Of a stretch of 64,000 nucleotides of DNA, positions 3,001 through 62,559 are shown piece by piece. Source of the DNA: Owenia fusiformis (taxonomy: Eukaryota); contig CAIIXF020000001.1 of assembly GCA_903813345.2 (NCBI GenBank), positions 21,762,001-21,826,000 on the forward strand, written 5' to 3'. Under the pieces are notes generated by a model that did not search any database, had not been told where the DNA came from, and saw only the letters and a program-made list of their open reading frames with translations. A program made the translations under genes and the position numbers. The stretch's first letter is position 1. Each line of letters begins with the position of its first letter.

Positions 3001-5075
3001 AAACTGGAACTATCTGAGAGATTGACAACAAATTCAAATATTCAAAATTACATATCTGATTTATACTTGATGATAAACATAACATAGCAAACATCATATT
3101 TAATTTAAATTCATTTTCTCTCTTATGCTGTTATACTCCTATACTGTACTGTGTGTGCACAATGCACATAACTTTGTCAGTTTTGCATCAAGTTCTCGCT
3201 CATATATCCTTTTTCACAATGATTATGATTAAAACACCATTGACTGATTTCAAACAGGGTACAAAAGTAGGAAATCATGTAGGGGTATACAAGAGGATGG
3301 GAAATCATGTAGGGGTATACAAGAGGTTGGGAAATCATGTAGGGGTATACAAAAAGGGTAGGAGATTGTGTAGGTGTATATAAAAGAACATGTGTGGTTA
3401 CTCTGCAATGAAAAAGGGGTAGCTCTAGAGCAAAGACTTGATGCAATACTGCTATACCTGTGTGTGTACATGCACTGTGATTGATTATCTTAACATGTTG
3501 TTCTGTTGTTAACACCTAACAGTTGCCCTCTGAGGAAGAGCAGGAGTTAAGAGAGGCTGAGGCTCAGGTAAGACTATTGTCTTCTTTGCCTTGATTTGAT
3601 TTGATTTGATTTGATTTGAAAACTATATTTATTCTGGGTAGCTCTATCAGTGCAAAAAACTGGTCTTCCTAGAGGCCCAGTAATAATTTACAATTATTTA
3701 CAATGTGTACACCTTCAGGTAATATATGACATAAATATGTGAACCCTTTTTTAATATGTGAATATGGGCTCCCCCTTTACTTTTGGTCATGCCTTCTTGT
3801 GAAAAAGTACACTAAAACCTTTCAGATTGAACAGTACGCTAGAATGAATGTTTCTGTAATGAACACTTTTTCATGTTTTTTTCTCCAGATTTCCATGTAA
3901 AAGTGACCTTTCTAAATCCTGTCTGACCCCCAAACCAAAAATGTTCTTTGTCTTAGAGTGTTCACTTTAAAGGGGTTTTACTGTACATTTTCATTTGTTT
4001 TAACCCTTTTACAATGATTGTAACCTGTAAGTGACCATAATACCTGATTACTAGATGTTATCTACTTGAAGAATGATTCCCAGGATATTGTGTTGAGTAT
4101 AGTGCATATTCTGTAACAAGCACTGTATATGTTTTTTAGAGAATTTGAAATTAAATGTTATTCTATGATTGCATGAACTATGCACAAGTATTCTTAAAGC
4201 ACATACACATTACACAAATATGAATTAAGCTATCTTTATGGCAATTCATATAAGGGGTCCCATATTCACTGGTGATCCACTCAATTACGCTGGTTACCAA
4301 AACGGTTCGTTTTGGTAACAAAATGTTGGAACGTCGAATGTACGATTTTTCTTTTTTCCTTATTTCACGCGTTGTAGGCAGAATCCCCACGAAGTTTTTG
4401 GTAAACGGTTAGGGTTAAAAGTGCAGATCTTAACTGTTTTTCGAAAAACCTTTAATGTAGCTTAAGTGAGGAATTAAATCGACGATTCTGTTGTCTTCTG
4501 AACTATTTGTAGGCAAATATGTACATTTTCTTAAACATGTGATACTGATACACGTTTGTGTTAAAAATGTCACTTGAAATAAGGAAAAAAGAAAAATCGT
4601 ACCTTCCATGTTCCGACATTTTGTTACCAAAATGAACCGTTTCGGTAACCAGTGTAATCGAATTGATCACCAGTGATATTGTTTCCACATCAAACTTCTG
4701 TAATATCTTTAAAACTTTCAAGTACTCAATTTTTAATGTTCAGTCTTTGGATACTATTTATGACACTAACATGGCACAAACATTGCCTTGACATTTTTTT
4801 TACTTTTTCAGCTGGAATCTGGAAGCCAACAAGGCACCTACAAGTTCCTCAAGGTATTAGCCGCCTTAAGACATTGGGAAATATTAAATCCAGATATTTC
4901 GGCAGCAATTGAATTTTGCAGAGAAAAAATCATCCAAATGCCAATTGAGGAATACGAGGAATGGTTTAGGTCACAATTTCCCACAATTGAACGACCCCAA
5001 ACAGCACCACCTAGTATAAAAGGAGACACTAAACAGCGTGAACATTCCCATCAACGGGAAAAGTCAGCTCGGTGA
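25..5075 (+). CDS. CCDC60: Coiled-coil domain-containing protein 60 homologue (DUF4698), 5'-partial; exons 25-236, 477-586, 998-1138, 1628-1783, 2142-2232, 4812-5075 (plus candidate cassette exons 2571-2597 and 3523-3567)
   Basis: All junctions are GT-AG and phases join into one open frame ending TGA at 5073-5075. The C-terminus KFLKVLAALRHWEILNPDISAAIEFCREKIIQMPIEEYEEWF resembles the recalled vertebrate CCDC60 C-terminus (LLKVLQDLRIWELCSPDIAVAIEFVREHIIHMPQEDYISWL). The upstream WYVDLQLHMPED...KIMEKLAKF block also matches. Confidence 0.88.
1341..1520. repeat. Intronic minisatellite, ~6 x 32 bp
   Basis: Unit aatcaggtccaacatgttaatgatgttaacag starts at 1341, 1373, 1405, 1437, 1469 and 1501. Confidence 0.9.
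1945..2065. repeat. Intronic tandem repeat, ~4 x 32 bp
   Basis: Repeated cataat(a/t)atccaaattact(c/t)acatgtactgtc. Confidence 0.85.
2571..2597 (+). CDS. CCDC60: Candidate 27-nt cassette microexon of CCDC60 (KMAEKGSEE)
   Basis: ctaacag acceptor, GAG|gtattc donor, phase 0-0, purine-rich and stop-free, inside the phase-0 intron 2233-4811. Confidence 0.45.
3268..3380. repeat. Tandem repeat, ~3.5 x 30 bp
   Basis: ggaaatcatgtaggggtatacaagagg(a/t)tg repeated; explains the repetitive ORFs at 3153-3515. Confidence 0.9.
3523..3567 (+). CDS. CCDC60: Candidate 45-nt cassette exon of CCDC60 (LPSEEEQELREAEAQ)
   Basis: ctaacag acceptor, strong CAG|gtaaga donor, phase 0-0, stop-free, GA-rich. Confidence 0.6.
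4267..4675. mobile_element. Non-autonomous TIR element, CAC...GTG ends, 5-bp TSD (Transib/RAG-like signature)
   Basis: Ends cactggtgatc...gatcaccagtg, imperfect TIR of ~105 bp, ATATT on both flanks (4262-4266, 4676-4680). Confidence 0.75.
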
Positions 5076-17592: not shown

Positions 17593-18219
17593 CACCCTAT
17601 GCAGACAGAGCCTGTGGGAAATATTGGGTGCGGAGCAAATGAGTGGAGGGTGCGGAGCTAACGGTCATTTTTGAATTTAAATTTGGGATATTTCTGAAAT
17701 TAAGCCGTTTTGGGACTTCAAATATACCAAGATATGTGTATTTGACACCCACCAAATATCAATACAATTGTGAAAATAGTAGCACAATTCATTCTATAGC
17801 GACGCAGTGTGCCTTAAACCTTTCCCAGACCTATATATTTTGAAATTATCCTTTTAATACTGAGTCCCCAGCATTCATAAAAAATGGTGTTCAAGGTACA
17901 CTATCTATACAAATTATTTTTGCATCGAAGCCAGGCAGTATCTGTGTGATTTTATAAAAATTCGGAAATGTTTTTCAGATAGAGCCCCCTCTAAATATTG
18001 GGTGCGGAGGAGCTCCATGAACGTACCTCCGCACTACTATTTTCACAATTTTATTGATCATTGGTGTCAAATACACATATCTTGGTATATTTGAAGTCCC
18101 AAAACGGCTTAGTTTCAGAAATATCCCAATTTTAAATTCAAAAATGACCGTTAGCTCCGCACCCTCCGCTCATTTGCGCCCCACCCAATATTTCCCACAG
18201 GCTCTGTCTGCATAGGGTG
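17593..18219. mobile_element. Long-TIR non-autonomous element, CAC...GTG ends
   Basis: caccctatgcagacagagcctgtgggaaatattggg...cccaatatttcccacaggctctgtctgcatagggtg, ~190-bp TIR, flanks ATAAA/ATAAG (4 of 5 match). Confidence 0.8.
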
Positions 18220-22500: not shown

Positions 22501-25500
22501 ACCAAGGAATGAAAGTCATTTATGAAACCGTCATTGCTTATGTGATACAAATGCTGCTGGAGTGCCACTCTAAACCTCATCCAATGAGTAAAAACATTTT
22601 CTTTCAACCCTCCTTTCAACTAGGAGAAAAAGAAGAAAATCACATGGAGCCATATCTAGACTGTATCGTGCATATGGTAGCTGCTCAAGGTCAATAATAG
22701 TGAAACTTTAATGTCGTATTCTTTGTTCCACTTTGATTTCTTTCATGTTCTGACTTTCAGCAGCCATCTTGGAGAAAAAATGATACCAGAATGAGGGTTG
22801 ATTTTCTGATGACAATTTTTTAGAACTTGACATATACGGCCATTGTTATATGTGATATTATAATAAAAACACAATTAATTGGTTGCCTGATAACAAAGAG
22901 AGTAAACTAATATGGTTTAACATTCAAAATTTAAGGAAAGATAGTGGTCAAGACTTGCAAACCGAGTCAAATAGCGGCAACATTTAAGGCTAAAAGTTGC
23001 CATGTGCGAATACCGTTCCGGGTGGCAGGGTCACTATATTAATAACTATTGAGAAAACTACATAAAATATATCATTTCACCATGAAATTAATACACAAAG
23101 TAGTTAGGTTGTTGGTCTGTATTATTGGAAAGTTTAAAGATATTTTATCAAAAACCAACAAAATTAGAGCAGGGCGTCCAAGACTTTTGGATCACCCCTC
23201 GTATGAATGCACATAAAATAACACAGCACTTCTTCAAGGTCTTCCATGATTAAGTGCAAAAATAAAACCATAATATGGGATATATAAGTACTACCCAAGA
23301 TTTATTGCTCACCTTCGATGGTGGTTAACAGCAATGAACAACAATAAACAATGGAACACAATAAGAAGCAATGGGTAGATGTACATGTATGAATATTTTA
23401 CATCTTAATCACTCGAAAGGAATATCTCTGCATCGAGTTATTTACAAGTTCAGTCAGAATTTTATCAACGCTACATATAAATGGTGATTTCTCATCACCT
23501 GTTTGTGAAAATATGATTTCCATGTTTGTAGATTCTCCAGAGAGCCCATGTTTGAGACAGTATCAAACCATTGAGAAAAAAAATTTGGCCAAAATCTAAT
23601 TTCATTTTGGTTTGTATCCCATACCATAGTATTACAGTAACATGTAACAATGGAGAATTTATCCTTGCACGATAAAAAGCAATTTTTCAGTTTTGTCTTA
23701 TTTTATAAGAAAGAGTCGCAGTGAAGGAGACAAAGAGTTACTCACTGCGCCAGGCTCAACTTTGAAGACATCTTTGGAGTATGTAGGTCCGCTTGTTGTC
23801 ATGGCATGAACGACCCAGTTAGCACAGACATGGCAGAGTAAGAGTCCCCATAATGCTTGCGATTGGAGGATATCTACCCATGGTACTGTTAATGTCTGCA
23901 ATGTAGATAATATGTTCATATAGGGCTAAGTAGTGTAGACATAACAAATAAAGAGAGTCCATAATGTTTGGAAAAAGCAATGAAAATATGTATGCTTAAC
24001 CACAAATTATAATAGGATTCAATATTCAAAAACTATAACATGTGATATTTGCCAAGAAATGTGTGTTTTGCATTCTGAAAATATTTTGCTATCAAAGAGA
24101 ATATCAAATTACAAGTTGGCTACACCTTAATAAATGAAAAGTTTGAACAGTACTCATGCAAATATTTATTGTGAAATGTCATTTCATGGCTGGACCAAAT
24201 AAACAAGGCATTAACATGCAAAATGTCACCACCTGCCATTTGTTACAGATGCGGAATACTGCGCACCAACCACCAAATTACAACAACTGAACCCAGTCCA
24301 CAAAAAGGTTGGAGACTATAACTTGTGGTGGTAACATCAGGAAACATTATGTACCAAGATATGTACCTCTGTTTTCTTGCTTGTGACTCCAGCTTTGATG
24401 TGTTTAAGTTCTTGCTGTGATATAGTGGGATGTTCATCTGGGGAGTCATATACATTCTGGTACCAAAGGTACAACCAAAAGAATGTCAACCCACCTGAAA
24501 AAAATAGGCAAAATTTTATCTTTATAACACATGTGAAATAGTTCTGATCAATTCATAGAGCAATTATTCAAGGCTGTTGTACAAATCTGTCAATTTATTG
24601 TGCTAAAAGATTAAAACAAAAAACAAAATATCTAGATTCAAGACAAAACTGGATTTGAACTCATGCCGTTTTATTAACTACCTCCAAAACATTGATATTC
24701 AATATTCATCTAATCTGATAATATATTACAGAATAGTATTACAGAATAATTTATTTCAAAATGATGAATCAAAAAACATATTCTAAAGAGAATGAAGAGG
24801 AGGGAGTGGACTATAATACAGGATCAAGGTAAATGGCAGGGGTGGTATTGAATTGGGATCTCCTTCAGGAGACAATGGGATACTGTTGCTGTTGCTACTT
24901 AAATGGGGCTTCACCTAAACAAACCAACCAACCATACTAATTTGTTAGCCATAGTGTTCCATATGTATACCTGGCATATAGAAGGTAAGGGGCCATAGGC
25001 TGCTGTCTATCTGGCAAAGTGCCCCTGATACTGTCAGTCCAAGCAGTGCACCAAGACCTCCCCCTGAAATTAGAGATGTCCTCCCTGTAGTTTTGCTCAT
25101 GTAAAGTTAGACAGTGTACAAGACAATCAACTCCCGCAACAGTTCCTTTGTTAGTAAAATTTTGTTTGATTCATCATGAACAAGTTTTATCATGATGACA
25201 TGGCATTTTCTTCCTTTTAAATGTTTCTTCAGTGTTAACATTTCTGCCTACTCCAGATAAAAACTATAATAGATAACAGAAGGCATGATATCGACAAACA
25301 TAATGGTAATAACAATTGCAAATAAAAAAGTACCTGAATTTGTGAAAAGAATCAACTTGGTTCTTTCATACACTGGTGCCCAGCGACCCCAGAATGAGTG
25401 AAAAGCGGGAAATGAACAACCCTGAAAAAGAAGTTCATACAGAGGGGGCCAACTATGTCTCTAGGCTTTCAAAATAAATATAATGTATTAATGATTATAT

Positions 25501-28500
25501 TATGCAAAAAAGGCATTAACTTGCCATTTGTTATAGACACCGAATGCAACCACCAAGCTCCAAACACTGTCCAGAAAAAAGTTGAAGACTATAACAATAT
25601 CTTGGTGGCAATATAATAAAACTTTAACTTAACAAAAAAGCTCCTGCAGATCCAGAAACTCACTTAATTTGGATCATCAAAATGGTAATACATAATATGA
25701 GTTCAAAATATTATCAGTAATTGACTTTTTTAAACACAATAGATGCTCACTGCCCATTGAATCACGGAGGATAAGCAAAACGAGGGTGAAGCCACGGACT
25801 GCGACTCGCGTAACTTTACACCGCAGCCCAGCGCCAAAATGGAGGGACATCCGGCAGTGCCTTCTGCTTCTTCCGACAAAATAGAGAAATCCAGGTATTT
25901 TAAATGCTATCGTAGTGTCTAATCGGTGACCAAAATATTACTCTGTATCTACTGTTGGTCTGTAGATAAGAAAATAAGCAGTTGTCCAGATCAAGCTAAA
26001 ACAGTAGCAAAGTTCTGATTTTACCTGTTAAATATGTGCATATTATTTAATTTACTATACATTTGAAAGGAATTTTAACACGTTTCTGATATCTAAAGGT
26101 TAGTTGAGGCTCCGAGTATAATTCGTGAAAATGATTTGATCAATAGAATGTGTTCATGAGGAGAAAATTAGATTCAAACTGCGCATTCATAGTGGACGCA
26201 GTCCAGTAAACAAAGCTATTTCAACAACGCAACACAGCCTCCATTGATATTCTAAGTAACGCAGTCCAGCCGCGAACACGAAATAAATAAGATAGTGTAA
26301 ACTATATTCCTACGCTATTATTGTTTCAGGAAAAGAAAGTCAGCATCCAGATTATCATTCAAAGTTACGTTGATTAACATATATCTATTACCTGAATCAA
26401 TGTCCCAAATTGCTATATTGTATCGTTTAAGACCTAGAAATATGGCAATTCAATGCGTATTTGGCAGAACAGTCGAGCGCAAGATGACAACGTAATATGT
26501 TTATTACAAACTAATTTGTGGATAGGGTTAAATATATAGATAATTGGATAGTGGTGAGACTTTTTATAAGAAGTAGAAATGCGAAACAATTAACTTTTTG
26601 ATGATGCAATAAAAGCTGTTTGGGAAGGGTACATTAACTAGTATTTAAGATATCAGGGAAATATCAAATAATTGGAGAGTTGGTGAGTTAATGTAATTTT
26701 GGATGATCTTTCCAACAGTCCATCAATATTGCTAGCTACCATAAATTCATGATTTCAGCTGTATTGGACAGCTTGCATATATTTGCAGAATGGATTGAGA
26801 CACGATGTAGGTCTATTAAAATAGCCCTTTATATTCAATTTTGTCCAAAGTTGCTCCATTTCAGCCACACCTGTACACACATTGTGCTATCTACCTTTGG
26901 CTGTAATTGCGTTCAGCTTCAGATATAAAGCAACACTGAGTCGCGGACTGCGTTGGGCAGATGGATGGACTGCGACTATTATAAATTCCAATTTTCTATG
27001 TAATTGTACGTTTTCCGCTTACCAAATATCACACGAAGATGTAATTGTAACAACAGAACATAAATAATTATATTAATTGGATGTCATTTCTGATTCCTTT
27101 GTTTAAATCGGTATATTAGGGACAAATATTGACAAAATTACATTTTTTTGTGGCAGATTTCGAATTCATTTGTGTTCATGCTAAACTATTGGACAGCCGA
27201 GCACCAAGAATGCCATTGCAGGTGGAGTGTGAATATGTTGATCACCGACTGGAACATACTAGCTATTCTGTAGAATATCCAAACCAATAATCTACCCCAA
27301 ATCCTAACATGCCTTCCAAATTAAGTTTGGACTTACCGCCATTGTTCAGCTATAATGCGTTGTAACCTCATTTTGAATTACGCGAGTCGCAGTCCGTGGC
27401 TTCGCCCTAGTTTTGCTTATCCCCCGTGTGATTTATATTTCTCCTATGATCATTCAAGTGAACTAAAATAATGTTCTCTTCTATATCTTACTGTGGAGAG
27501 TCCAACGATAAACCGCAGCACCATGACCATATAAGGTCCCCCTAGGCGAGCACCCATGGGAGTCATCACTGTAGCTATTGCACAAACAAACAATGAACAG
27601 CCAAATATGCGCTTTGTGCCAACTTTATCTGAAAGCCAGCCACCTGGGATCTGAGTTATTATGTAGCCATAAAAGTACGCCCCAAGAATCCAGCCTTGTG
27701 TTTCCTTGTCCCAGTCAAATTCACCATTCTAAAAAACAAGTACAATACATTAGAAAATACGTAGAAAATACATAGAAAATACAGATCATAAAATCTGGTG
27801 GGAATATTTTCACCTTTACTGGATTATCACTATCAATTAGGGTAATAATCTAAATGACTTAACTATAAATAATTAAAAATGAAATGGATAACACATCTCA
27901 GTGCATATTTACATACTTTTGTAAACTACTTAGTTCAAAATCAATTTATTTCAATGAAATTAACATGTCTTATGATTTTAGGTCTCTGAGAGAAATGATA
28001 AATTGCGAAGACCTTTGATTTCCTAAATATATTGTAAACAAACTATGATAAGTAATCATAATCTTGCGAATTACAAGTATCTCAGTGGGAACAAGACATC
28101 GTAACATACAAAATGTCACCACCTGCCATTTGTTACAGATACTGAGTGCCAACTGGCAGACACCAAACACTGTCCACAAAAAGTTGGAGACTATAACAAT
28201 ATGTCAACACTCGTGATGGCGACATATGATTGGAGAAACCTTACATAGCAGAGCTGCAAAATATTAAACCATTCAGATCTGATTCCATACCTGACCCTCC
28301 TTACTGTTGACCATACATATGATAGACATGCTGATATTCACTCTCATAGCAATCATCACAAGGAAGCCTATGAAGCCCATATAGGCCTGCATCATACGAC
28401 ATGATCTCCAGATGTTCTCTAAAACATAAGAAGGATATGGTCAGTCTTTCTCTTGAAAATGTCCTTACTCCAATGGGTGGAGGGGAGCCTTTAACATTTA

Positions 28501-31902: not shown

Positions 31903-32272
31903 TTATAACATACCTATGATGATGTATGGTGCAAAGTGTACACAAGACAGCGGGGCAATATAAGTTTTGAAAAGCCCGTGCCCGCTAATTTTCTGATTGG
32001 TCAAGGCGCTGACGTCATAACCAATCAATCGAAAATAAAACTGCTCGAGCAATTTTTCTTAACTCATTTCAATCATTTTCAAACCATTTGTTTGTCAATT
32101 CTATAAGAAAACGGTACTCTCTGACCAGTCTACATCATCATAGGTATGTTATAAATCGTTTATGTCACTATCGTGGCACATATGCCCTCGGTTCTCAGAG
32201 ATCAATGTCCCTCCCAAGGTCGGGCCATATATCACTGAGACCTCGGGCATATATGCCACGATAGTGACATAA
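31903..32272. mobile_element. Twin-hairpin element (two abutting palindromes), Crypton-like non-autonomous type
   Basis: Palindrome 31903-32154 (ttataacatacctatgatgatgta...tacatcatcataggtatgttataa), a 5-bp spacer, then palindrome 32160-32272 (ttatgtcactatcgtggca...tgccacgatagtgacataa). Lies inside a Tc1-like pair at 31559-32478. Confidence 0.6.
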
Positions 32273-32516: not shown

Positions 32517-33762
32517 TTATTCATCATCCTGTACCCTCAAAAAATCTTTGAATATTGGGCGTATGAATGTATCTACCATAGTTCCTATTATAGAACTTCT
32601 GCGTCTCTTTTTATCCTTGCGGGGAGATGTATTTCCTGAAGTGGGACTTGCTAGATTCTGTAGTTTCATGTTCTCCTGTATTTCCTCTTGTTCAATGATA
32701 TGCCTATCAGGAGGATTGTGCTCCACCTCTCTGTGTGATGAACCAGGACTGGTGAATACACCATCAAATAAATTGACATCTCCTGGACTGGGACCACCTG
32801 TCTTGACTGACTGTTGATGGTGCAGCCTCTTTCGTCTCTTGGTCAGACCAGAGTTAATAACTGGAAGTAAATATAAATCTCCGATTGATCTGTTTTTCAT
32901 TTTGCGGAAATGGTAGTGCCCTGACATGACAGATTCATGGAATCACGAAATAATCAGTTTAACTTAATGTCTCCAAAGCTATATAATAAGGGGTATTTTG
33001 TTCTTTTTAAATAAATATACGTTAATTCACCTTCCGACTTATAATGTTAAACAAAGTCGGCTTTTGAAAATTTTCTTTTAATATATACTATTGTATTGAA
33101 TAAAAAAACATGATAAATAAAAAAATCTATATAAGGGGTTGTAGGTGACTGCGCTTTAAAGCGCATCTGGGAGGATAAGGGTTAACTTTTTCTATGAAAA
33201 AAGTTCATGCATGGCATGGAATATTATTAAAACTTTTCTTACCACTTGTTTTCTTGGATCTGGTGAAGTATCTCTCACTCCTCTCTGGTGCTCTAGTTAT
33301 GAGCCTCCTCACTGGTCTGCTGATTGATGTTGCAGATTGGGGAATGGCACCATTTTCACTAGATTGTCCAACTGTATTTGCATTATTATTTGAAGTGTTA
33401 AGATCTGACAGTGATTCTTCATATTCAGTCCTTGAGATTACAGTGAGAATGTGAACATAAGGATTGTGCTTCACAGTTTTGCCCCCTTTCTTGAATTTCA
33501 GCTTTTTACCAGCTTTCCAGGGTAACTTATCGCAGTTTATGAAGAAATGTTTGGTTTTTATTGGAAATTGGTCCCCCTTTGTACACAGTAAAGCTTGTAT
33601 AACTCTCTGTACTTCACTGTTCAGTTCAGTCCGCGAGCATGGTAACTTTATGTTTTGTATGTCCCTTGAGCGGTATTGGATCTTGAGCTTATACAGCATC
33701 CCCCTGTGCTGAATCAGACGAGTATCAACATTCTCTGGGATGGTGAACATTTTCAAAGACAT
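32517..33762 (-). CDS. MAJIN: Membrane-anchored junction protein (MAJIN) homologue, 307 aa; exons 33762-33243 and 32920-32517
   Basis: N-terminus MSLKMFTIPENVDTRLIQHRGMLYKLKIQY...FPIKTKHFFI...W...LKFKKGG...NPYVHILTV aligns by eye with recalled human MAJIN (MSLKPFTYPFPETRFLHAGPNVYKFKIRY...PFATEHFIV...W...LKFKHGE...YPFVFTLYV). A phase-1 G|gtaaga...tgtcag|GG intron joins the two ORFs. The tail is basic and ends in a hydrophobic segment. Confidence 0.88.
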
Positions 33763-34300
33763 CTTGTTTCACTGAAAAATAAAACAACAGTTGATTTGAA
33801 GACAGAATTCTATGCCAAGGGGTGATGTGAGGAAGTCAATCCACTTAAATTGAAAATTCCTTCTCAATTTGGTAAACCTATGAAATTTGAATCAAATCAG
33901 TCAACCAGTATTTGAGTTATCACCAGGACAAAGGAGTGGATGGACAGCTTCTCTATATCCCTACTAAAATCTTTGTTCAGTGGGATAATTTACAAAGAAG
34001 CTCTAAGTAAAAAGTCAACTTACTATAGTCAACAATCAATTACAATTAGATACAGTATACATTTAATGGTGTCTCCTAAGCCGATGCCGGCTGATGTTTT
34101 TTTTTAAAAAAGTACTTATTATACGTAATGAAATGTAGTTTTAACCTGCGACACTAAAATAAAATATTTGAAACTTTAAACTAAAACTAACAAACAATCA
34201 CAGACATTACAGAAGCCCTTCTTTGCTATCTCAAGAACACAAAAGATTCTAATGACTAAATAACTAAACAAAAAATAACTAAAGATAATAATTATAGGAT

Positions 34301-36367: not shown

Positions 36368-36762
36368 TAGAGTCCATTTCACTGCTTCATTTCGTCAGTA
36401 GAATGGCAAAAATAAGAAATTGGGAGACCATTGTGCAATAGTATATGGAAAAGTATATTCACAATGTACATAAATGACATTTGTATATCTTGGATTGCTT
36501 CTAGTTTGGCTTATAAAGTGCGTGGCCTCTTATATTTGGATGTTTCTCTGCCATGTTATTTTCAATAAGATTAACATGGCTGAAATTCTTCAAATTACAA
36601 GACGGCACAGGCTTATTGCACAAAAAACTAAAAAATCTGAAATATACAAATGTCATTCATGTACATTATGAATATACTTTTCCATATATTATTGCACAAT
36701 GGTCTCCCAATTTCTTATTTTTGCCGTTCTACTGACGAAATGAAGCAGTGAAATGGACTCTA
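36368..36762. mobile_element. Foldback MITE with ~115-bp TIR
   Basis: tagagtccatttcactgcttcatttcgtcagtagaa...ttctactgacgaaatgaagcagtgaaatggactcta. Confidence 0.8.
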
Positions 36763-37717
36763 ATACACGAGGTAAATATAAGAGGTAAATATTGATCATG
36801 TTTCATATTTTTTGGTAGTCATTTTTTGGATGTACCATTTTTGGTTTGTGTCCAATCTTCATATTTATTCATTGAGCCTACTTCAAATAGGGGCTGGGTG
36901 TGACTCCGGATCTGTGGGGGGATGAACTTCAAGTTGAATTGAAGTTCAAAAATAAAAAAAAATCCGGAAACGTAATTTCTTTATCTTCATTTCTTTGAAC
37001 CTCAAACACAAATAATTGAAACAAAAGATATGTACCTGAGATTAGTTTCTATTTTGGAGTACGAATCTCGTGTCTATGATGTATTTTTAGCCAAATATGA
37101 ACGTTTTAGTACAAATTTGTCATTTTTAAATTTCCGCAAAAAGTTGCTTATAGTCTCGCAGCATATCGTAATTTTTGAATCGAAAAAATCAGATCTGAGA
37201 AAAAGCATACAAAGATCACATCCTTATAATAACCTATAGTTCTAATAATAAAATGAAAAAATTAAGTATACCCAGAGAATGCATATGATAATTAAATATT
37301 TAAAAGTTCATCGAGACTAAGTAGTCTAATAGTGTCGCCATCTATCATAAGTGAGCGATAATAAAGTTAAAAATATTGTTCCTTGTCTAATGTTCAACCT
37401 TATTGTGGATTAATCGTGTGTTACTTTAAGTTGCATATGTCATGTGATGTAGTAAGTATATACATTGGCTTATAGTCCAGAATATGACAGAATTTTAGTT
37501 GTATGTCGCCAAAATAGATAAAGATATAAGAGAACAAAAGTTGAAAAGTAAAGATAATTTTTCATTTTTTCAATGCCACCAATGCAATGTTATGGCTTAT
37601 TTTTCACTTACAAGATCACAGAGGCTGAGATAATCTAATATGAAAAATTAGTCATGTTACTTTCATCTGTAGAGCTCTGATTGTTTCAAAATTTCATAGT
37701 TCAGTTTTTGTTTTTAA

Positions 37718-38121
37718 GGTTCAGCTGGAAAGTAACATTTTGGTAATAAATTGCTATACCTGCCCATGTTATTTTCTGGTACAAAATTAAGTATGAAGGC
37801 ATGTGTGTATTGCCTTGGTTTTTTCAGGAAAGCATCATTACACTGTCTTCTTTTAGAATATCTAGAAACAGGTCAATGGTAGCTCCTGTGTTGTCTGGAA
37901 ACTTTGAAAGAAAATATGGAAAAATAGAAAGTGTGAAATATCAGAATTTCCTGTAGTTCCCATTAAACGCCTACCAGATATTCTAAAATAAGACAATGTA
38001 ATGATACTTTCCTGAAAAAAGCAAGGAAATTGACACGTGCCTTCATACTTTATTTTGTACCAGAAAATAACATGTGCAGGTATAGCAATTTTTTACCAAA
38101 ATGTTACTTTCCAGCTGTACC
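37718..38121. mobile_element. Kolobok-like foldback element
   Basis: TTAA|ggttcagctggaaagtaacattttggtaa...ttaccaaaatgttactttccagctgtacc|TTAA, with long inverted arms. Confidence 0.8.
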
Positions 38122-38143
38122 TTAACATTTGCGTTCTATTTCA

Positions 38144-40598
38144 CACGGGATGTCATCGCCTGATTTGGTCAATGTTAGGGAGCAGGTCGTTTTTACAATA
38201 AATTTCAATATTTTCACACAAAATATTTTTTTACTGAAAAACTGCTCATTCGCAGAGAAAATGTACTAGCACATGCAATGACAATGTCAATCACGCTTCT
38301 GTACTAAATTCGGCGGAAGTCTTTTATAATCTAATACGAAGTTACTAAAAAAGGCGCGAACGCCCTACACTCAAAATGATCGTTTTTCCATTATAACTTT
38401 TTAACGTAATTTAACGAAGGCTTCTAATTATTATCCAAGATAGTCTAAATACCGATTAAAATATTTCTTACTTCAAACAGATACGCCGTCTTTTATTCAA
38501 TTTTTTAAAAAATAATAAAAAATAACTCTTGTCAATGTTAGGGAGCAGTCAATGTTAGGGAGCAAAATGATTTTATCAGAATATTAAAAATGTAGCAAAT
38601 GGCCATTTAAAATATGTATGGCATTTATAAACTGAACAATTTTGTTTGTATGATTATTTGATACCCTTTGGGGAGGAAAGCGTTAAAATTGTAAGAAAAT
38701 CATTGAAAAGGTTATTTTGCATTTTTTATTTTCAGCTAAATCCTGTTTACGTTCGTTTTAGAAATATTTAGATGCGAACCATTCCTTCTTTATTCGTTGA
38801 CCTCTAACTGTAAATGAATGGATGTATCGTTATATACACTTTTTGATGATGTCATCAGTTCACAATCCTAAATTGTGGATGATAAATTATCTGAACTGAT
38901 ATATAGGCTTGAGAAATCTCCGACATCCTTCAGTTCTATGATTTGATATTTTCCTAGTATTAAAGTAAGAGAGTTAGTCTCGCACTTATCTTTACGACCG
39001 GGTATCACCTGATAGCTGGCACAAACGCTATGAAGGGCTCATTGCGCAGTTACATGTATGATAGTAGATTTTTACACGTATACTTCAATTTGTCAATACT
39101 CAGACAATGCAGTATATAACCGATCTCTGTTATATGTGTACCACTTGCTAATGATACTCTAAAGCCCGGTATACACCAATGGGACAAGTTGGGAAGAAGG
39201 GGATACAAAGAACAAACCTTCAAAATGCCTCAACCAAGAGGAGTAGCCCCTGGACAAAGACCGACAAAGACCGATTCGTACACACTATAAAACTGATTTC
39301 TCGAAAATAAAGGATTCAGTGAAAATTGGACTTGACATTTCAGATTAATTTGCAAATTAGTAATTGGTGAAAAAATAACACTTTGGAAAGAATTTTTAGT
39401 TGTTCAAGAGAAGTGACGGTATTTTTTCCTAATATTCAATTTTTGTGCTGCTTGCTGAGCTATACTTGAAAGACAATCAGCTCAATTTATGTCTATATTT
39501 GGGTTAAAATGTGTGAAGTCCCAAAATGTTTTATTATTCTAACATTTCTAAAATATGATTGGACAAAGTTTTAGACTTTCTTTAAGTGTTACCGGTCTAT
39601 TTCAAAACAATAATTTATATACAAAGATGAGCTCATTTATTTAAATACAATATCATGAATAAAGGGAGATGTCATGTAATTATTGTATCTGGTTAAATTG
39701 TGTATATTGTGCTGAGCAATACTGTATGCTTGTAAGGTTTATACCAAGGGGTATAAAACAATCATACAATCTTGTCTAGTTTATAAATGACATACATGTT
39801 TGTAAAGGCCAATTACTCTGATATTCTGATAAAACCATTTCGCCCCACTGCATTGTTTGCTCCGCCACATTGATCATACTTATTTTTTATTATTTAAAAA
39901 AAATTAAAGAAAGGTGTACCTGTTTGAAGTAAGAAATATTTCAATATGTACTGAGATTATCCATGATAATAATTAACTTTCCTTCGTCAAAAATCTTTGA
40001 GAGTCCATTTTCTGAAGATAACAAAAATGCAAAACAATTTTTTTTATCGATTTTGTTAAATTTTGTTAAGGCAAGGGGTTTAAAATAATCATTCAAACAA
40101 TATTGTTCAGTTTATAAATGCCATACATATTTTAAATGGCCATTTGCTACATTTTTAATATTCTGATAAAATCATTTTGCTCCCTAACATTGACTGCTCC
40201 CTAACATTGACAAGAGTTATTTTTTATTATTTTTTAAAAAATTGAATAAAAGACGGCGTATCTGTTTGAAGTAAGAAATATTTTAATCGGTATTTAGACT
40301 ATCTTGGATAATAATTAGAAGCCTTCGTTAAATTATGTTAAAAAGTTATAATGGAAAAACGATCATTTTGAGTGTAGGGCGTTCGCGCCTTTTTTAGTAA
40401 CTTCGTATTAGATTATAAAAGACTTCCGCCGAATTTCGTACAGAAGCGTGATTGACATTGTCATTGCATGTGCTAGTACATTTTCTCTGCGAATGAGCAG
40501 TTTTTCAGTAAAAAAATATTTTGTGTGAAAATATTGAAATTTATTGTAAAAACGACCTGCTCCCTAACATTGACCAAATCAGGCGATGACATCCCGTG
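38144..40598. mobile_element. Young 2.45-kb non-autonomous element with ~497-bp near-perfect TIRs, CACGG ends, 5-bp TSD
   Basis: Arms 38144-38640 and 40102-40598 show only ~2 mismatches by eye; TTTCA on both flanks; no transposase ORF seen inside. Confidence 0.9.
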
Positions 40599-43500
40599 TT
40601 TCAGTTGTTTTTCTGTTTTCGTCGCCCATCATTTATAACATGTAAACATTTTAACAAACAACAATATTTTCCTGAATTAAAAAGCCGACCAGAACAGATT
40701 TTAAACTGAATCGTAACGTCCGAGGCTAAAGAACCAAACTGCACCATGTTCATTGTGAACTGTCCAAGATTCATCATTTGGTTATACAAATTTTTATTTT
40801 TATTGAGAATTAGTCTTTACATGAATTAAATATTACTCAAAAATCTGTTAGCTAATTATAATTTGAATCTTAAACAGTAAAGAGAGAAAGATTAAACATT
40901 AATGTCAGATGTTCATGAATTTCAAATGCAGTATGTGATGAGAGGACAAGAAGGCAATGTTCTCAATCTAAATAATTGCTGGCTCTTTAGCACAGCCAGA
41001 GACAATGAGACATTGTTTGACAATTACCTATATGGACAACATTGTCTCCCTATACCAGAATTTTATAGTGATTACCTTGTCATATTAGCCATCATTTTTG
41101 CCCTCTTAGTTCAGCAATCTTGAACATATCCAAAACAAATTTCTTAATTTAGATGTTTTGCCTCTGTCTTTTATCACACTTTTTCAATGTTGTATTGTCA
41201 TTATTTTGTGCTGATGGGCATGCATCTGATGGGGTGAGTGTTTGAGCGGGCTTCACAAAACTCTGTATGTAAATTTCAGGCAAACTGCTTTTTCTGTTCA
41301 ACTTGAAATTTTTATAACATTTTAAATGAAATACTTATTATAGCAGTGTTGCTATATGAAGGTTAACAAAAGTTTTGTATAACAAAGCTGTAAAATTAAA
41401 GTTTAAGTAAAATCATAGTATGCCCATGGTAAAATTAATATTGTCCAGTTATTGTAATTACACCAGCATCACCAGTGGTTGGATTTTGATAAGTTCATAG
41501 ATAAAAAGTAATGTATGAACCTAACAGATGATTTGATATGATTAAGGTGTGAATAGATGGCATTTTAAAAGCAATAATATAGTCCAGTTATTGTAATTAC
41601 ATGGAGGTTATACCCAAGAGCAGTATCTAGACAAAATAGACTAATCTCATGAGTTGGACATTTTTACAAATGAGAGATTTTTAATAGTTTTTTTTTCATT
41701 ACTGGCTGATCTATTCTTCTGCTAGATCTTGTAGTCATCAAAATATAAACAGTTGTTCAGTTTTTTTAATTAAGATTCTTCTCATAGAGTAGACTAGGTT
41801 AAGCATTGTTTAGCCATCATGTCTGTACCAGAGCCTTTTAGTTCACTCTTAGTATGATTTTTGCAAGGTGAGATAGTCTCAGTCAGAATGTAATTTCTAT
41901 TGTTTCATCTTATTAATAGGAAAAATAATTAGATAACATGAAAAATAATATTTTGCATAAAATGATCACTCTTGGGTAATAAAAATGTCAAATAGTTAGA
42001 TAGAGTGAGTCCATATTTATAAGTACAGTGAGTGAATAATGATTATATTCATGAAACAAAAGAAGGTTTATCAAAAAAATCTACTGAAATAACATCCTCT
42101 AGCTACATAAGACTTAGGACTCATGTTTCATTCTTCTTGGAGTCCAAGGCTACTTATGTCTCTCATAATGTATAAACATTAATGGTATCTTTGTATTAGA
42201 AAACAACTACTGGTATGCCCAAAATGTAAGATGCGAATACCACAATCTGACCAATATTCTGCAAATATAGCGTGACTAGCTATGAAACACTTACAATATT
42301 TTGCACCAAAACAAGTCTATTCTTTTCACTATTTCTCATTGTAGAGTTTTGAAGAGCTTTTCGGTACCAAATAAACCTAGATAATCAACTTATTTTAATC
42401 TATACAAGCAGTCACTTTGTTCCGAACCATTCCTAAATTGTTCCTTTCCGAAGCAAAATATTCTGAATCAAACCGTTCCAATTTTTTTGTTGTTCCGTGA
42501 CTCCTCTATTATGTACTATAGAAAAATGCTTGGGTGGGTACTACGTATATATTTAGGGAGAGCAGGGTTCTGTTTAACAGGTTTAAGAGATGAAGAGATG
42601 ATACATGTATGAACATTGATGCTCTTGCAAGACTACCATCTTCCAAAATAACTGTTTTTGGAACCAAATATAAAGCTCAAAAGTTTCAAAAGAATCAGCG
42701 TGTACTTTTCATTTTGGTCAAAGCATTAACCTTCATTTATTTCCACCATTATAAAAAGCACTAACTGCAGTCACTGTCAACTGTAGTCAGACGTACATGT
42801 ACAGTGATTGTGCCAGGAACCATAATGTAATTCTTGTATGTTTTCTCTATGGTTTATGATAATACCAAAACCTATTTTGTATATTTGATCTACCATAAAT
42901 AGAGAACAATGGAAGGTATTGGCTTTGTTAACTCCATAATCCCATATACTTGAAGTCATTCTTCAAATATTCAACAACCAACAAAGTTTGTAAGTATTTT
43001 TGTTACATTGTTCTTCCGCTTGTTGTTAATATAGTTATCATCTTGAAATAAATAAATTGTTTATTTTAATGGTGCTTTGATTGATAAAGTTAAACAAGTC
43101 AACAATGGCTTGTTTACACAGGCCTAAGTAAGATAAAAAATTGAATTTGAATTCATGTAGTGTCTCATTTCCAGTCATTGAATTGAATTCAAATATTTGC
43201 AAACGTTTGTTACATTTTTGTTACATTTTATATAAATCAATAAAAAATGAATCTGCCAAAATATTCAAATGTAGTTTAATCAATATATAATAAATAAGAT
43301 ATTGACTATAGGTAATAATCAATAAACATATGGTGAAAATGGCAGATGGTAAAGGCTTGAATCTCTCTAAGTATTCATCAAGTATTCTGCCTTGCTATAT
43401 ACACCATTGTTTTTATTACCCTTTGCATTGGTTCTTTATCCTATATCGGTTTGACTTAAAAATAGAGCTTTGTCTGTATGTTAGTTTGTGCTCTATGCTC

Positions 43501-47518: not shown

Positions 47519-48537
47519 CACGGGGTACCATCGAATAATTTTGGCAACGTACCGGAGAACGACATTTTACTAAGAAATGGCAATAATTTAGCACAATATA
47601 TTTTTTAACTATAGTTCTATTTTGATTTTGACAAAAGTAAGTATTCCATGCAATAACTATTTCATTCATGAGTTTGTAGGAATTCTGTTGGAACCCAGTT
47701 CTGATCAAGTACGAAGTTATTGAAATCGGCGCAGACGGACTGTACTCCGAAAGATGGTTTTTCGATTATAACTTTTCACAACATTTAAGTATAGACTTTT
47801 GAAAAAAGTACAGAATAGTCCTTATACTTTTAAATAATTCTGTTATTTCTGATTCACACGACTCTGATTTGTTTAATTAAAAAAAAAGTTTTAAAAATAT
47901 TACTTAGGAACGTAACCGGAGCTGGGAACGTAACCGGAGCAGATCAGTTGAATTATATAATTTAAAAAAAATAAAATATATGATTTAAAGCATATATATT
48001 ATTAACAAACACATATGTCAGCTTACTTGGTGTGATATAATTATAGAACACTGTCTATTAACGACTGAAAAGCAATGTTCTGTAGTTTAACTAGATTAAA
48101 TAATTCAACTGATCTGCTCCGGTTACGTTCCCAGCTCCGGTTACGTTCCTAAGTAATATTTTTAAAACTTTTTTTTTAATTAAACAAATCAGAGTCGTGT
48201 GAATCAGAAATAACAGAATTATTTAAAAGTATAAGGACTATTCTGTACTTTTTTCAAAAGTCTATACTTAAATGTTGTGAAAAGTTATAATCGAAAAACC
48301 ATCTTTCGGAGTACAGTCCGTCTGCGCCGATTTCAATAACTTCGTACTTGATCAGAACTGGGTTCCAACAGAATTCCTACAAACTCAAGAATGAAATAGT
48401 TATTGCATGGAATACTTACTTTTGTCAAAATCAAAATAGAACTATAGTTAAAAAATATATTGTGCTAAATTATTGCCATTTCTTAGTGAAATGTCGTTCT
48501 CCGGTACGTTGCCAAAATTATTCGATGGTACCCCGTG
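47519..48537. mobile_element. Young foldback element with ~438-bp near-perfect TIRs, CACGG ends, 5-bp TSD
   Basis: Arms 47519-47956 and 48100-48537, spacer ~143 bp, ATTAT on both flanks. Confidence 0.92.
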
Positions 48538-49640
48538 ATTATACTGATTTGGTAATACTTAAATTTGATATTTATGATTGTGTGAAATATCAACAGGAAA
48601 ACAAGTTCTTTTATGACTTTTCTAAAAAGTAGAACTGCCTTATGTCATTAGTTTAAGTCTAAGAATTTAATGACTTAAATGTACTTCCACATTTTGATCC
48701 AAAAATTAGAAAATTTCATTTCAACCTATAATCTAAGTATTTTTATATTGAAATTTGGGAAGATGCATTTTTCAAAGTTTATTATTTTTTAGAGAACTGG
48801 TGTCAAAAAGCATATATATATATATATATATACAATAAATCTGCCATATACATTTCATGTCATATCAGTACAATTTTCAATCATTTCCCAACCAATTACT
48901 TGTATTGCAAGTAGAGTTCGCTTTGGTAAATATAGAATATCATTCTTATATTAATAATAAAGTAGATTTTCCGCTTTGGCTATATTTGGTTCCCAATATG
49001 AAATCAATTCTGTATTTGTTAGTTGTGATTGTAAGTTAGTAAGTTACTCGGATCAATATCAACAAGATTTTACAATTTATGTGGTCTTTTTAGCTAAATG
49101 TAATAAATCTAGCCAACTAATTCAGTTTATCTAAGAAAATGGAACTTGGCATATCCAAGTGAATAAAGCAGTTTAAGGCCTGATTGCAGATAAGTTGAAT
49201 TCTTGAAGATCAGAAATTCTTTGATATAATTGTGGTAAGTAAATTTTTGACTTATTTTCTTAAGGATTAGAATGCGCAAAATACATTAGAAAGCATACAA
49301 TATATACGTTTGTATGTATGTATATAGGATTCACCTGAGCTGTTGCTATTCTCTTATGAAATGAGGGTCCTTTTGGTCTTATTTAAGATACAATGGCCAC
49401 ATTTTGGTCAAGCAAAAATTCTCTTATATTTTTTAAATTGGATTTTTATTTTTTTCTATTTCATGTACTATCTCAGAGTGAGCTTAAAAATCAGTGGTCA
49501 AGGTAATTCACAACATTTTTTAGTGTGGTTTTCATCAGTTTTTTTTATTTGGAACATTTCCAACAACTGAAACAGCAATACCAAGTCCATTAACAGATTT
49601 GAAGATTTTCTAACAAAACCACCAATTATGTACGTGTATA

Positions 49641-50671
49641 CAGGGTGATCAATAAATAAGGTAAAAGTATCTGGCATTTCTTCAGATTTTACCCAATCCT
49701 CATAAAATTTGCACAGAATAATGTTCAAACATTATTAAATTGAAATTATTAAGTAACAGATCAAAGTGGTGTGATTGGTTGAAGTTATGGTTGCCATAGC
49801 AACAGAAAGCATGAAGACCCGGGGCAACTATCAAAGAACTAAATCCTCAGTCGAAGCGCTTTTGGTAATGTATTTCAAATCACAATTGAAATGACATATC
49901 ATATTCTTATTTTATACTTCATAACTACTCTACCTAATGTCTTTTGTTTTTAACATGTAGCTCATGTCTTCTACTCCAGTCTTTGAATTCCTTTTAAACA
50001 CATTTTCCCATAGCCTGCGGCAAATTTTTAAGATAGCTGAGTTCAAGTCTTCCCATGAGAAACTCCCTCAACTCCCTCTTCAGCTCATCATGAAGGTAAA
50101 ATCATTAGGGGACAAGTCAGGAGAGTATAGAACATGGCCTAATAGTGGGAAACCCAGTGCATCAATTGCTTTTGCCGTGAGAATAGCATTGTGAGATGGA
50201 GCATTATCCAAGTGCAATGTGAGACATTTTGCGGGCCTCTTCTTCCTCTTTGCTCTCATCAAATCTCTTCTGTGGTTGACCCGTGTCATAGACTTTCTAT
50301 GATCACATCACTTTTCATTATATATTTATCTTTTCTGTGACACCAAACACCAAATTTGCAAGAAAATGTGTAACAATGGTAACAAAGTATTAAAACAATA
50401 AATGCTGGCACCCATGTTTATTTCTTTTCAGTTTGAAAAAGATGTGCTTTTTATCATTTTTCGTTCAAACTGGACACAACTAAATTGCCCCGGGTACCCC
50501 TGACTCTATTTGCCATGGTTACTATAATATTAACCAATCAGATGGCAGAATTGATATATTTATATTTTTTGATTCAGAAATGTACAAGGTATATTCTGAC
50601 CAAATTTCAGGATGTTTGGACCAATATTTACAAAATACCAGATACTTTTACCTTATTTATTGATCACCCTG
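49641..50671 (-). mobile_element. Degenerate mariner transposon
   Basis: TA|cagggtgatcaataaataaggtaaaagtatctgg TIR at both ends; ORF 50080-50289 contains LHLDNAPSH and YSPDLSPNDF (DD34D mariner catalytic motifs). Confidence 0.9.
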
Positions 50672-51075
50672 TATGTAGTGATATGTTTTATATCTGCAGC
50701 ATTCTAGACTTGTCAAAATAATTACTTCCTAATAGTTAGTAAGATAAAACAAACTTATAAACAATTTTAGTTAATTATCTGTCTTAAATATTCACGAATC
50801 TTCCCCCCTTCTGCTATGTTAGACACGTCAAAATAGTTTGCAGCGAAATCAAACAAAAAAATACCATTTTACTCCCTGTGCAATATTTTATCTTCATCTG
50901 TTCATGCTATCAGAGAATGAGAGATTGGAAGAATTGAAGTTGAATGCATTGCTGATAGCCGATAACATTAACAGCCTGTCAAATTAATACTCTTTCCAAG
51001 AGATCAGCTTGATGTATTGTTCTCTTTAAATGAGAGATGAGATTTATATCAATTTAGAATATGCATATACTGTAC

Positions 51076-55042: not shown

Positions 55043-55726
55043 TGGCCTAGTCACATAGCCCGGCCGATGAGGTTACGATGAGCCAGCGATGCAATTTTCA
55101 CCGAACTCGGCCGAACACCGGCCGGACACCGGCCGGACATCCGTGGCGTTTGTTGCTTAAAACCGCATCGGTGGTAGCTCGGTGAAATTTTAACTTCGGA
55201 GTTAAATTTCACCGGGCTGTCACCGAGCTCCCTCATCATGTCATCGCAGCCCCATCGTAACCACATCGGAAAACACGTCGGCCGGTGCACAGCCGAGTAT
55301 CGTCCGGTGTCCCGTGCATCTGAGACAACCAGAGGACGAGGTTTTTTAACGGACAGCGGCCGAGCTCCGACCGAGCTCCGGCCGATGTGGGACAGAGCAT
55401 CGGCCGGTCACTGTTCAAAGCCCGTTAACAACCCGGCCGGCGATCGCACGGTGTCCTGTTACCTGCTCGGGTACCGGCCGTATTCCTTCCGATGTCCGGC
55501 CGACCTCCGGCCGGTAGTTGCTGCCACATCGGCAGAAAAAAACTACCATTTTGAGACAGACTCCGTACGGTCACTGGCCGGTGTTCGGTCGGTCGCCTGA
55601 AGATGTCCGGACGGAGTCCGTTCACGTCACCGAGCTCTGCTTCCGATGAGGAGAGCTCGGTGGCACCATAAAAATCCACCGAGCTCTACCGATGCCGGAC
55701 ATCGGCCGGGCTATGTGACTAGGCCA
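55043..55726. mobile_element. GC-rich PIF/Harbinger-type non-autonomous element
   Basis: TIR tggcctagtcacatagcccggccgatg...catcggccgggctatgtgactaggcca, 3-bp TSD TTA, many cggccg/gagctc repeats. Confidence 0.88.
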
Positions 55727-59010: not shown

Positions 59011-60862
59011 GTTAAAGTATGTAAACTATTTTAAAGTAAATTTTAATCATTCAAGATTCATATTGATCCATTCTCTTTTATGAGTTGATAGCAATATACA
59101 CTGAGGATGAATTCTATATAAAACCTCATTTAGATGTGATTTCTTCAAAATTTAAGACAGAGAATAGATTATGGCATCAACCAAAATTTTAGACCTTTTT
59201 CTACAACATGTGATATGATAATATGAGTCTATTCATGCAAGTATTAAGGAAAATATAGCCTGTTGCAGGGGTTCACTTTTTTGGACCACCCTGTATATTA
59301 ACTTCTCTTATTGCATGTTTAATGGTATAGACTGGACTGGTGTAGGTGGAAGAGTCATCTAATAGTCATTAAGTCATCATCTTTACATAACACTTTAAAA
59401 TCCAAGAACAGCCAGATTTTATTTAGGCAGAACTTCAATGTCTATCTGATATATAACAAAATATGTGAAAATTAGAAAGATTGACCTTTTTGTTATCCTA
59501 GTCACAAGTTTAACCTTTCCATATAGACTGAAGAGTTGACATCCTGAATATTTAGGAGAACCTGTAAAGGATTGGTATTGATATGGTGAACTTTTTGAAC
59601 ACACTTTTCTCTTAAATCAGTCATCAAAAATTTCTAAAAATTACATATCGTCAATTTAATGGTCATCTTTTGAATGGTAACAATATAATTTGAAAAAATG
59701 TATATACTTTTCTCTATATTGTTTTAGAAAACACATCAAACACTTCTTTTGCTTCTGGTATCATATGCTCAGAATGAAATGAAACATCTTTCCGAACCTG
59801 TTTTGAACAAAATGACATATACACAACATGTGTAAGTCTCTCAATATTGTAATTGTACAAAGGAAATTTTGGTTGATTTTAAAAAAGTATCTTGTTGATG
59901 AAATAAAAGGTTTATCTTGATTTTTATCTATTTTTGTTTTTTTTTTACTTTTTTCTAATTTTGCTTCAATATATTGAAAAGGTAGAGAACTCATAATACA
60001 TTGCAATACATTAGACTGAAAGCTTCTGAAATTGACTCTCTATTTAAATTCAGTATCAAGATAAGACATAAAATGATCCATCTTAAGTAGACACATATGT
60101 TTGGATAACTAACAGCTTATCAGCTTTATAGTGCTTCATATAACTGTATAATTCTTTTCCAATCTGGAGACAGATTATTTAAGTTATGTAAGTTATGGGT
60201 TTGTCTCATTACTGTAGTCTTGACTGGATTAACTGTTTTCCTCTAGAAGATAGGTTTCAGGCTGATTCAATGTATAATTCAAAGACAATTTTAAAGAGTT
60301 CTTTAAAGTTACAGTTCTGTTAAGTCTTGAATAAAATTTCTATAATGAAATATGAAGTTTAAAATATCTACATTGGAATCACTTATATTTTTAGACATAC
60401 TATGACCATTGCCGCTTACCAATTTTGACCTATATACCTATCATAGGCGTATCCAGGAGGGGGGGGGGCGATGACCAATAAAAATAAGAGCTTTAAAATG
60501 TATTTTGTTTGAAGCTTCTAGCTAATAGCAAGAATTTGGCAATCGTGCCCCCCCCCTGGTCTGCTGGTTGCGCTAATGTCTTTTATTTCCACATATAGGG
60601 TAACTCAGTGAACTTAAATATACAAGTTTAATGTTAAACGTTGCTCTAAAGTTTGTGTAACTGATATCTACCTGGTGTGCTCATGTGGCCAGTATTAGAT
60701 CAGATAGAGAAAAAATATAACACCTTCATTATGAACTAGCAGCTCAAACCCAAACAGAAGAATAAAAATCTGTACAAATTGATTGATGCTATATGTCAAA
60801 AATAGGTTTTAAAATGCTCATAAATATTAGATAACTTAAACATGCAATATACTGGAGTAATA

Positions 60863-61952: not shown

Positions 61953-62559
61953 TACTACTCAGATAACATTTCGGTTATTTTACCTTGATATTTGAAGACA
62001 ATTGTTAAATACATAAATATTAGATTTACAATTGTACTTTTTTGTTACAATGTTATTCACCTTTCCACAAAGTCAGCCCATGAATATTATAATGAGCTGC
62101 TTAGAAATCTGTGACGTCAATGAGAGAAACTTTTTCCCGCGATAAACAAATGCAATTGAGTTTACATGTACATCCTCGGTTGATTGCTGTAAGTTTTACC
62201 TCTTCAAATGTGCAAGTTATCAGTAAATTATTGACGGATTTTTATTGAACATCAAATTGGCATTTATTTACGCCTTCTAAGCGATTGAAATATTAAATTT
62301 CTGTTCATAATGAGTAAATAATTTGAAGAGAATTACTCCGGTCAGTTTTCAATCATGATTGGAACTGGATGTGAACAGGTGAAATTATCATGATCATTAG
62401 TTCACTAACATTATAACATGTATCTCATGCATATAAATAAATAGATAGACAATCTATTTTAAGTTAATCAACTAAACGATTACTTCCTATTTATTTCTGC
62501 AAGTCATATCAGATCATATCTTGAAAATATTATACTTGAAAACATCAGGATATATAGAG

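Follow-up and report, generated by a model that had tools for sequence, protein, structure and literature searches.

What kind of transposase would move a group of DNA transposons that end in CAC...GTG, some of which repeat a short motif deep inside long inverted arms? The question is raised by a 64,000-nucleotide (64-kb) stretch of the Owenia fusiformis genome (contig CAIIXF020000001.1, positions 21,762,001 to 21,826,000 of the forward strand), which we call the window, and above all by one element within it, E38. The answer we favor is that E38, its relative E47 and three further elements (E4, E17 and E25) were moved in trans by a Transib-type DDE transposase, belonging to the CACTA/Mirage/Chapaev/Transib (CMCT) clade, that would be encoded elsewhere. 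Judged from the sequence, we give this reading a probability of about 0.55. A preliminary description of the window had already grouped these elements as one class and had tentatively linked the class to Transib/RAG-like or Chapaev-related transposons, and we return to its claims where the evidence bears on them.

Arms and internal repeats of E38 and E47

The coordinates of E38 and of its parts are collected in Table 1. The tips of the element read CACGGGATG... on the left and ...CATCCCGTG on the right, and its junctions, with the boundary marked by a slash, are ...CTATTTCA/CACGGG on the left and CCCGTG/TTTCAGTT on the right. An inverted-repeat search paired 38143-38670 with 40072-40599 (528 nt, 99% complementary). 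Compared base by base from the CAC tip, the two arms differ at 7 of 527 positions (162, 263, 498, 506, 517, 519 and 524), so that only two mismatches fall within the first 497 nt, in agreement with the earlier figure of ~497-bp arms with ~2 mismatches. When flank lengths of 1 to 8 adjoining CAC/GTG were tried, an exact direct repeat was present at five bases only. The TTTCA target-site duplication (TSD) claimed previously, and the remark that a 4-bp duplication does not fit, are therefore both upheld. The near-identical arms and the intact duplications are compatible with recent movement. They do not date it, because both arms move together.

A single 17-mer, GTCAATGTTAGGGAGCA, marks both arms of E38. 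It occurs exactly six times in the window where 0.16 occurrences are expected, every one of them inside the E38 arms, and none of 100 shuffles reached that count. Its starts at 38168, 38531 and 38548 on the plus strand and at 40178, 40195 and 40558 on the minus strand place it at 25, 388 and 405 from each tip, giving one outer copy and two tandem inner copies per arm. The three left-arm positions are those given in the preliminary description, and the right arm mirrors them.

E47 is built in the same way. Its arms of ~446-455 nt are 99% identical and carry a repeat of their own, AACGTA(A)CCGGAG, at ~25, 389 and 407 of each arm. Although the element had been called unrelated to E38, its arms align with those of E38 collinearly and almost without gaps: blastn of the outer arms gives 66-67% identity over 261-274 nt (E 1e-13 to 4e-18), and 273/449 columns of the global alignment are identical (61%). 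E38 and E47 are homologous by this comparison. The layout of one outer and two inner repeats, which had correctly been described as common to both, is placed alike in the two elements to within 1-2 bp (25/388/405 in E38 vs ~25/389/407 in E47), while the sequence between the repeats has drifted to about half identity. Because the repeat positions have been kept despite this drift, we take the layout, and probably its spacing too, to have been inherited and maintained in the two families.

One further stretch of the arms stands out in the same alignment. Positions 181-260 form its best-kept block, with 60/80 bases identical against 61% overall. The block, located roughly halfway from the outer to the inner repeats, contains TACGAAGTTA and GTTTTTC.ATTATAACTTTT. 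A role in bending or in binding a host factor is conceivable, but the excess of identity is a weak one of ~2.6 standard deviations.

The interior of E38 has no coding capacity. It contains no stop-to-stop frame longer than 59 aa, and for its 11 frames of 40 aa or longer, Pfam gave sub-threshold matches only and nothing at or above a curated cut-off. What the interior does contain is an extra, diverged copy of the inner arm, 75% identical over 246 nt (E 5e-43) and oriented like the right arm, which holds two decayed repeats in register, ATCAATGTGGCGGAGCA and AACAATGCAGTGGGGCG. The existence of this copy had been noticed before; the position then given, ~39855-40050, was about 100 bp too far right. 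Such a copy could have been left by template switching, or by recombination among related elements, as the deletion derivative arose.

Table 1. Coordinates within the window of E38, its parts and the other CAC...GTG elements
Feature	Position	Strand	Description
E38, whole element	38144..40598	none	2,455 bp, non-autonomous, tips CACGGG...CCCGTG
E38, left TSD copy	38139..38143	none	TTTCA, exact direct repeat at k=5 only
E38, left arm	38144..38670	+	527 nt
E38, outer 17-mer, left arm	38168..38184	+	tip positions 25-41; presumed transposase-binding site
E38, inner 17-mer pair, left arm	38531..38564	+	tandem; tip positions 388 and 405
E38, internal region	38671..40071	none	1.4 kb, without coding capacity
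E38, diverged extra inner-arm copy	39745..39975	-	corresponds to arm positions 282-527, 75%
E38, right arm	40072..40598	-	527 nt
E38, inner 17-mer pair, right arm	40178..40211	-	exact repeat matches
E38, outer 17-mer, right arm	40558..40574	-	exact repeat match
E38, right TSD copy	40599..40603	none	TTTCA, exact direct repeat at k=5 only
E47, sister family	47519..48537	none	1,019 bp, tips CACGGGG...CCCCGTG, ATTAT on both flanks
E4	4267..4675	none	tips CACTGGTGATC, flanks ATATT/ATATT, arms ~101 nt (90%)
E17	17593..18219	none	tips CACCCTATGC, flanks ATAAA/ATAAG, arms ~190 nt (94%)
E25	25763..27428	none	tips CACGGAG/CACGGGG, flanks TGAAT/TGATT, inverted repeat ~50 nt

Five elements with one footprint

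E38 and E47 belong to a wider group in the window. A scan for CAC/GTG pairs with an inverted-repeat match of at least 17/20 returned 20 pairs, of which 15 were not counted as ends, 13 lying inside longer inverted repeats and two (32166-32266 and 55052-55717) having an inverted repeat that runs outward beyond CAC. The remaining five pairs are the true ends of the elements of Table 1, all of which end in 5'-CAC...GTG-3'. Read as 5-bp duplications, their flanks agree at 23/25 bases where 6.9 would be expected (binomial P 2.6e-11). The duplication is exact in three elements (E4, E38 and E47) and matches at four of five bases in E17 and E25, and an exact 5-mer flank arises in 0.26% of random placements. 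Five is the sole exact length in E4 as it is in E38; E47 shows an exact 2-bp repeat too, because ATTAT starts and finishes with AT. In a further scan, each of the 64 possible terminal trinucleotides was tested for an exact 5-bp flank combined with an inverted repeat matching at 12/14 bases or more. CAC came out on top with three cases, eight other trinucleotides, mostly AT-rich, gave one or two, and 55 gave none.

Each of the five elements carries a family-specific motif near its tip. In E4 this is CTGGTTACC at 24, and in E17 GGGTGCGGAGC at 34 and 56 of each end. In E25 it is CGGACTGCG at 33, with two inner copies per half at 435-498 that are inverted relative to the outer one. Together the elements make up 9.65% of the window, and each family is represented there by a single copy. 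We conclude that the five are non-autonomous cut-and-paste DNA transposons, true insertions of one class. The preliminary view of a single class defined by CAC...GTG tips and 5-bp TSDs is borne out; its picture of five families sharing all of their traits stands for the tips and flanks and not for the giant arms, which are confined to E38 and E47.

The single copies leave room for a reading without any transposon, in which E38 would have arisen by inverted duplication on the spot and would owe its matching flanks to coincidence, and the collections that we searched yielded no further copy either. Against this stands E47, a homolog located elsewhere with the same CACGGG boundary and a 5-bp duplication of its own, which excludes the idea in practice, as well as the flank-match probability given above. 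We therefore regard a mere inverted duplication as hardly credible.

Candidate transposases

We favor a Transib-type enzyme because CAC ends together with a 5-bp duplication are the hallmark of Transib in the literature. These features are described as setting Transib apart (PMC1131882), within a clade whose CMCT lineages are reported to have CA..TG termini in common and duplications of 2-5 bp (PMC12730594). The same CAC...GTG termini and 5-bp duplication are given for Transib including Hztransib, the active element of Helicoverpa zea (PMC1131882; PMC1852546). Non-autonomous derivatives are described as common in Transib (PMC1131882). Hztransib is further credited with 'long TIRs' (terminal inverted repeats), so long arms by themselves are not new for the group (PMC1852546). 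Within Transib, the sequence of the ends and the length of the duplication are reported to drift (bioRxiv 10.64898/2026.08.26.747230).

Under the Transib-type reading, the transposase would cut at the CAC tips and join the ends to the target with a 5-bp stagger. The 17-mers would be putative sequence-specific binding sites of the transposase, one by the cleavage site and a pair 360 bp further in, and the outer and inner sites of both arms could be united in one synaptic complex resembling that of inverted repeat/direct repeat (IR/DR) ends. How the ends are cut, bound and synapsed is our inference, the synapsis by likeness to the IR/DR ends of Sleeping Beauty. Sleeping Beauty-type Tc1 IR/DR elements have a TA duplication, arms of ~230 bp and an outer plus one inner binding direct repeat. 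In possible working they are the nearest likeness, having long inverted repeats with outer and inner sites, but the elements studied here differ in their 5-bp duplication, CAC tips, ~500-bp arms and doubled inner site. Membership in the Tc1/mariner IR/DR group was rejected: the flanks are TTTCA and the like, not TA, and those elements of the window that do have TA flanks belong to other families. Galileo, with a 7-bp duplication, belongs to a different superfamily, the P superfamily. Its inverted arms, too, are described as unusually long and as carrying several sites, in this case THAP-binding sites (PMC3688188).

Several observations weigh against a Transib-type transposase. None was seen in the window, which leaves the CAC tips and the 5-bp footprint as the sole basis for naming a superfamily. 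Of the window's 91 frames that reach 75 aa or more, Pfam matched seven (DUF4698, MFS_1 three times, MAJIN, HTH_48 and one below the cut-off) and found no transposase of a fitting kind and no RAG1L/RAG2L fragment, as the preliminary description had anticipated for the transposase; two internal frames of E25 gave matches below the cut-off only. The 38-bp end consensus reported for insect Transib families runs from a CACAATG heptamer through 23 bp of spacer to an A-rich nonamer in which A is conserved at nonamer positions 5-6 (PMC1131882). Set against this insect consensus, positions 31-39 of E38 and E47 are not A-rich, and at positions 35-36 E38 has GG and E47 has CG; the earlier statement that no nonamer of a recombination signal sequence (RSS) is present agrees with this. 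Transib and RAG are said to favor GC-rich targets (PMC1131882), whereas the duplications here are AT-rich, with 0-1 G/C of 5 at all five sites. The arms of 450-530 nt, each with a 16-17-mer repeat standing once near the tip and twice further in, are a further difference, and no Transib element with such an outer/inner layout was found in the literature searched. A survey of mollusc genomes is reported to have yielded a single Transib DDE frame (PMC10294476), which would lower the odds of a plain Transib source if the host were a mollusc.

A last point concerns the footprint itself. In each of the three elements with an exact duplication, its first base is complementary to its fifth, so a 3-bp parse also fits, in which the element would begin one base before CAC and leave a footprint like that of Chapaev3 or EnSpm. 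TAT (E4), TTC (E38) and TTA (E47) are then the duplications, each with one extra inverted-repeat base, and TTA and the TAA of E17 agree with the TWA described for Chapaev3 (PMC3014272). The terminal base would, however, differ by family (A, T, T), and the parse fails in E17 and E25, where the extra bases are not complementary. It takes two chance matches per element (~0.28 each) against one for the 5-bp duplication, and we rate it as less likely by a factor of 40 or more. Palindromic 5-mer targets are, moreover, usual for Transib, where CASTG, CAWTG and CARTG are reported (PMC1131882; bioRxiv 10.64898/2026.08.26.747230). We consider a true 3-bp duplication very improbable. Chapaev3 itself belongs to the same wider clade and has inverted repeats that start with CAC (PMC3014272; PMC4411706), but its 3-bp TWA duplication is described as adjoining CAC (PMC3014272). 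In the flanks of the five elements, no exact 3-bp repeat adjoins CAC/GTG (0/5), and the Chapaev-related link proposed earlier does not fit.

Could the enzyme instead be RAG-like, the elements being non-autonomous derivatives of RAG1L-RAG2L transposons? RAGL-B/ProtoRAG transposons of invertebrates share CAC ends, 5-bp duplications and non-autonomous copies with the elements described here (PMC7204232; PMC10629977). In protostomes, RAGL copies are described as having 5-bp duplications 'invariably' at their flanks, and a pearl oyster and deuterostomes are reported to contain non-autonomous RAGL elements (PMC7204232). The GGAGC core of the repeat, at positions 36-40, also lies near where the nonamer would fall after a 23-bp spacer. 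The tips themselves speak against this origin. The protostome RAGL consensus is given as CACTWMCAAACKTYKBB, with AAA at positions 8-10 (PMC7204232), and all five tips fail to match it, reading TGT (E38), TAC (E47), GAT (E25), TGC (E17) and GAT (E4) at these positions. The ends of described RAGL elements are conserved over 13-15 bp and not over half a kilobase (PMC7204232). The elements of the window have far longer inverted repeats and no TR2/AAA block by the heptamer, and the 91 frames yielded no remnant of RAG1L or RAG2L. A RAG-like transposase, to which the preliminary description had pointed, appears unlikely to us.

A stronger competitor, though still a doubtful one, is another superfamily or an undescribed lineage that combines CAC ends with a 5-bp stagger, either as an offshoot of Chapaev/EnSpm or outside CMCT. 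Beyond CAC, the ends follow the consensus of neither Transib nor RAGL, and the AT-rich targets point the same way. So does the lability of ends and duplication length that is reported even inside one transposase lineage (bioRxiv 10.64898/2026.08.26.747230). KolobokP, found in bivalves and other marine phyla and rich in the former, is described as having terminal repeats of ~450-660 bp and 3-5-bp duplications (PMC9587614). In addition, twelve end strings from these and neighboring elements were absent from the full texts searched (supplements lay outside the search). On the other side, CAC with 5 bp is stated to be the Transib hallmark (PMC1131882). KolobokP is a misfit and was rejected, since the arms of E38 are inverted and its termini are CA..TG where KolobokP is described with long direct repeats and RR..YY termini (PMC9587614). 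The 3-bp TWA duplication of Chapaev3 (PMC3014272) is a misfit as well.

Searches beyond the window added no copy of these families. The exact 25-nt tip had no match in metagenome contigs, and the tip had none in viral contigs. The sole match to a degenerate E38/E47 tip pattern, a metagenome contig of 1,426 bp (L013), was taken as chance because it is GC-rich and has neither a downstream GGAG nor an inverted partner. The 17-mer gave 12 single matches in prokaryote metagenome-assembled genomes and genomes, against ~70 expected in 596 billion bases, and these were discarded. An 82-aa frame of the E47 arm, compared with a protein collection (lengths 45-144 aa), had no candidate copy. Rfam returned no match, and no tRNA was found.

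The surrounding window and the meaning of the elements

The window is 33% G+C with few long open frames. Pfam identified exons of animal-type genes in it: a MAJIN-like frame (33208-33768, minus strand, E 2e-8), for which the protein atlas held no usable match, a DUF4698 frame (4770-5072, plus strand, E 1e-16) and three exons of MFS transporters. The MAJIN-like and DUF4698 frames point to an animal host. MFS exons occur twice, within 14295-15538 and at 27453-27728 (minus strand), and the first-exon-like frames 15296-15538 and 27453-27728 both match MFS_1 at ~25-99, which suggests tandem paralogous MFS transporter genes. The end of E25 lies 25 bp short of the frame at 27453-27728.

DNA transposons are dense in the window, TA-flanked elements and the CAC class taken together. 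A 412-bp element at 37714-38125, with 171-nt arms (88%) and TTAA at both ends, stops 18 bp short of E38's left tip; by its footprint it would be a miniature inverted-repeat transposable element (MITE) of piggyBac or Kolobok type. The 1.1-kb element at 60855-61960 has 197-nt arms (87%) and TA adjoining its CAGGGCG tips, and a frame within it (61325-61588, minus strand) matches the helix-turn-helix domain of Mos1 transposase (HTH_48, E 5e-11). Going by these features, it is a decayed mariner. Three more TA-flanked inverted-repeat elements, at 22147-23203 (CGAGGGGTGATCC), 49638-50674 (CAGGGTGATCAAT) and 36368-36762 (GAGTCCATTTCAC), look like MITEs of Tc1/mariner type. The inverted repeat at 55052-55717, whose arms continue past CAC, lies in the sole G+C-richer stretch (41% in 54-56 kb), and its overlapping frames of 118 and 140 aa had no Pfam match.

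This repeat content is ordinary for a repeat-rich animal genome; the long-arm, multi-site layout of E38 and E47 is unusual. The present value of the five elements lies in the repeat annotation of the genome and not in a new mechanism. CAC ends with 5-bp duplications are nonetheless the mark of the transposon lineage that gave rise to the RAG recombinase. A bolder proposal, which we consider improbable, is that an undescribed and still active Transib/RAG-like branch of CMCT carries E38, E47 and their kin with differently built ends, consisting of a CAC tip, a GGAGC-core 17-mer at the place of the RSS nonamer (25-41) and two more copies 360 bp inward. Were this so, the transposase would have an added sequence-specific DNA-binding module, and multi-site, IR/DR-like synapsis would exist in the lineage ancestral to V(D)J recombination. 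Should these families turn out to be present in large numbers, to be polymorphic and to depend on a live transposase, they would give access to an active invertebrate Transib- or RAG-like enzyme and provide a natural case of such enzymes relying on additional binding sites at a distance from where they cut.

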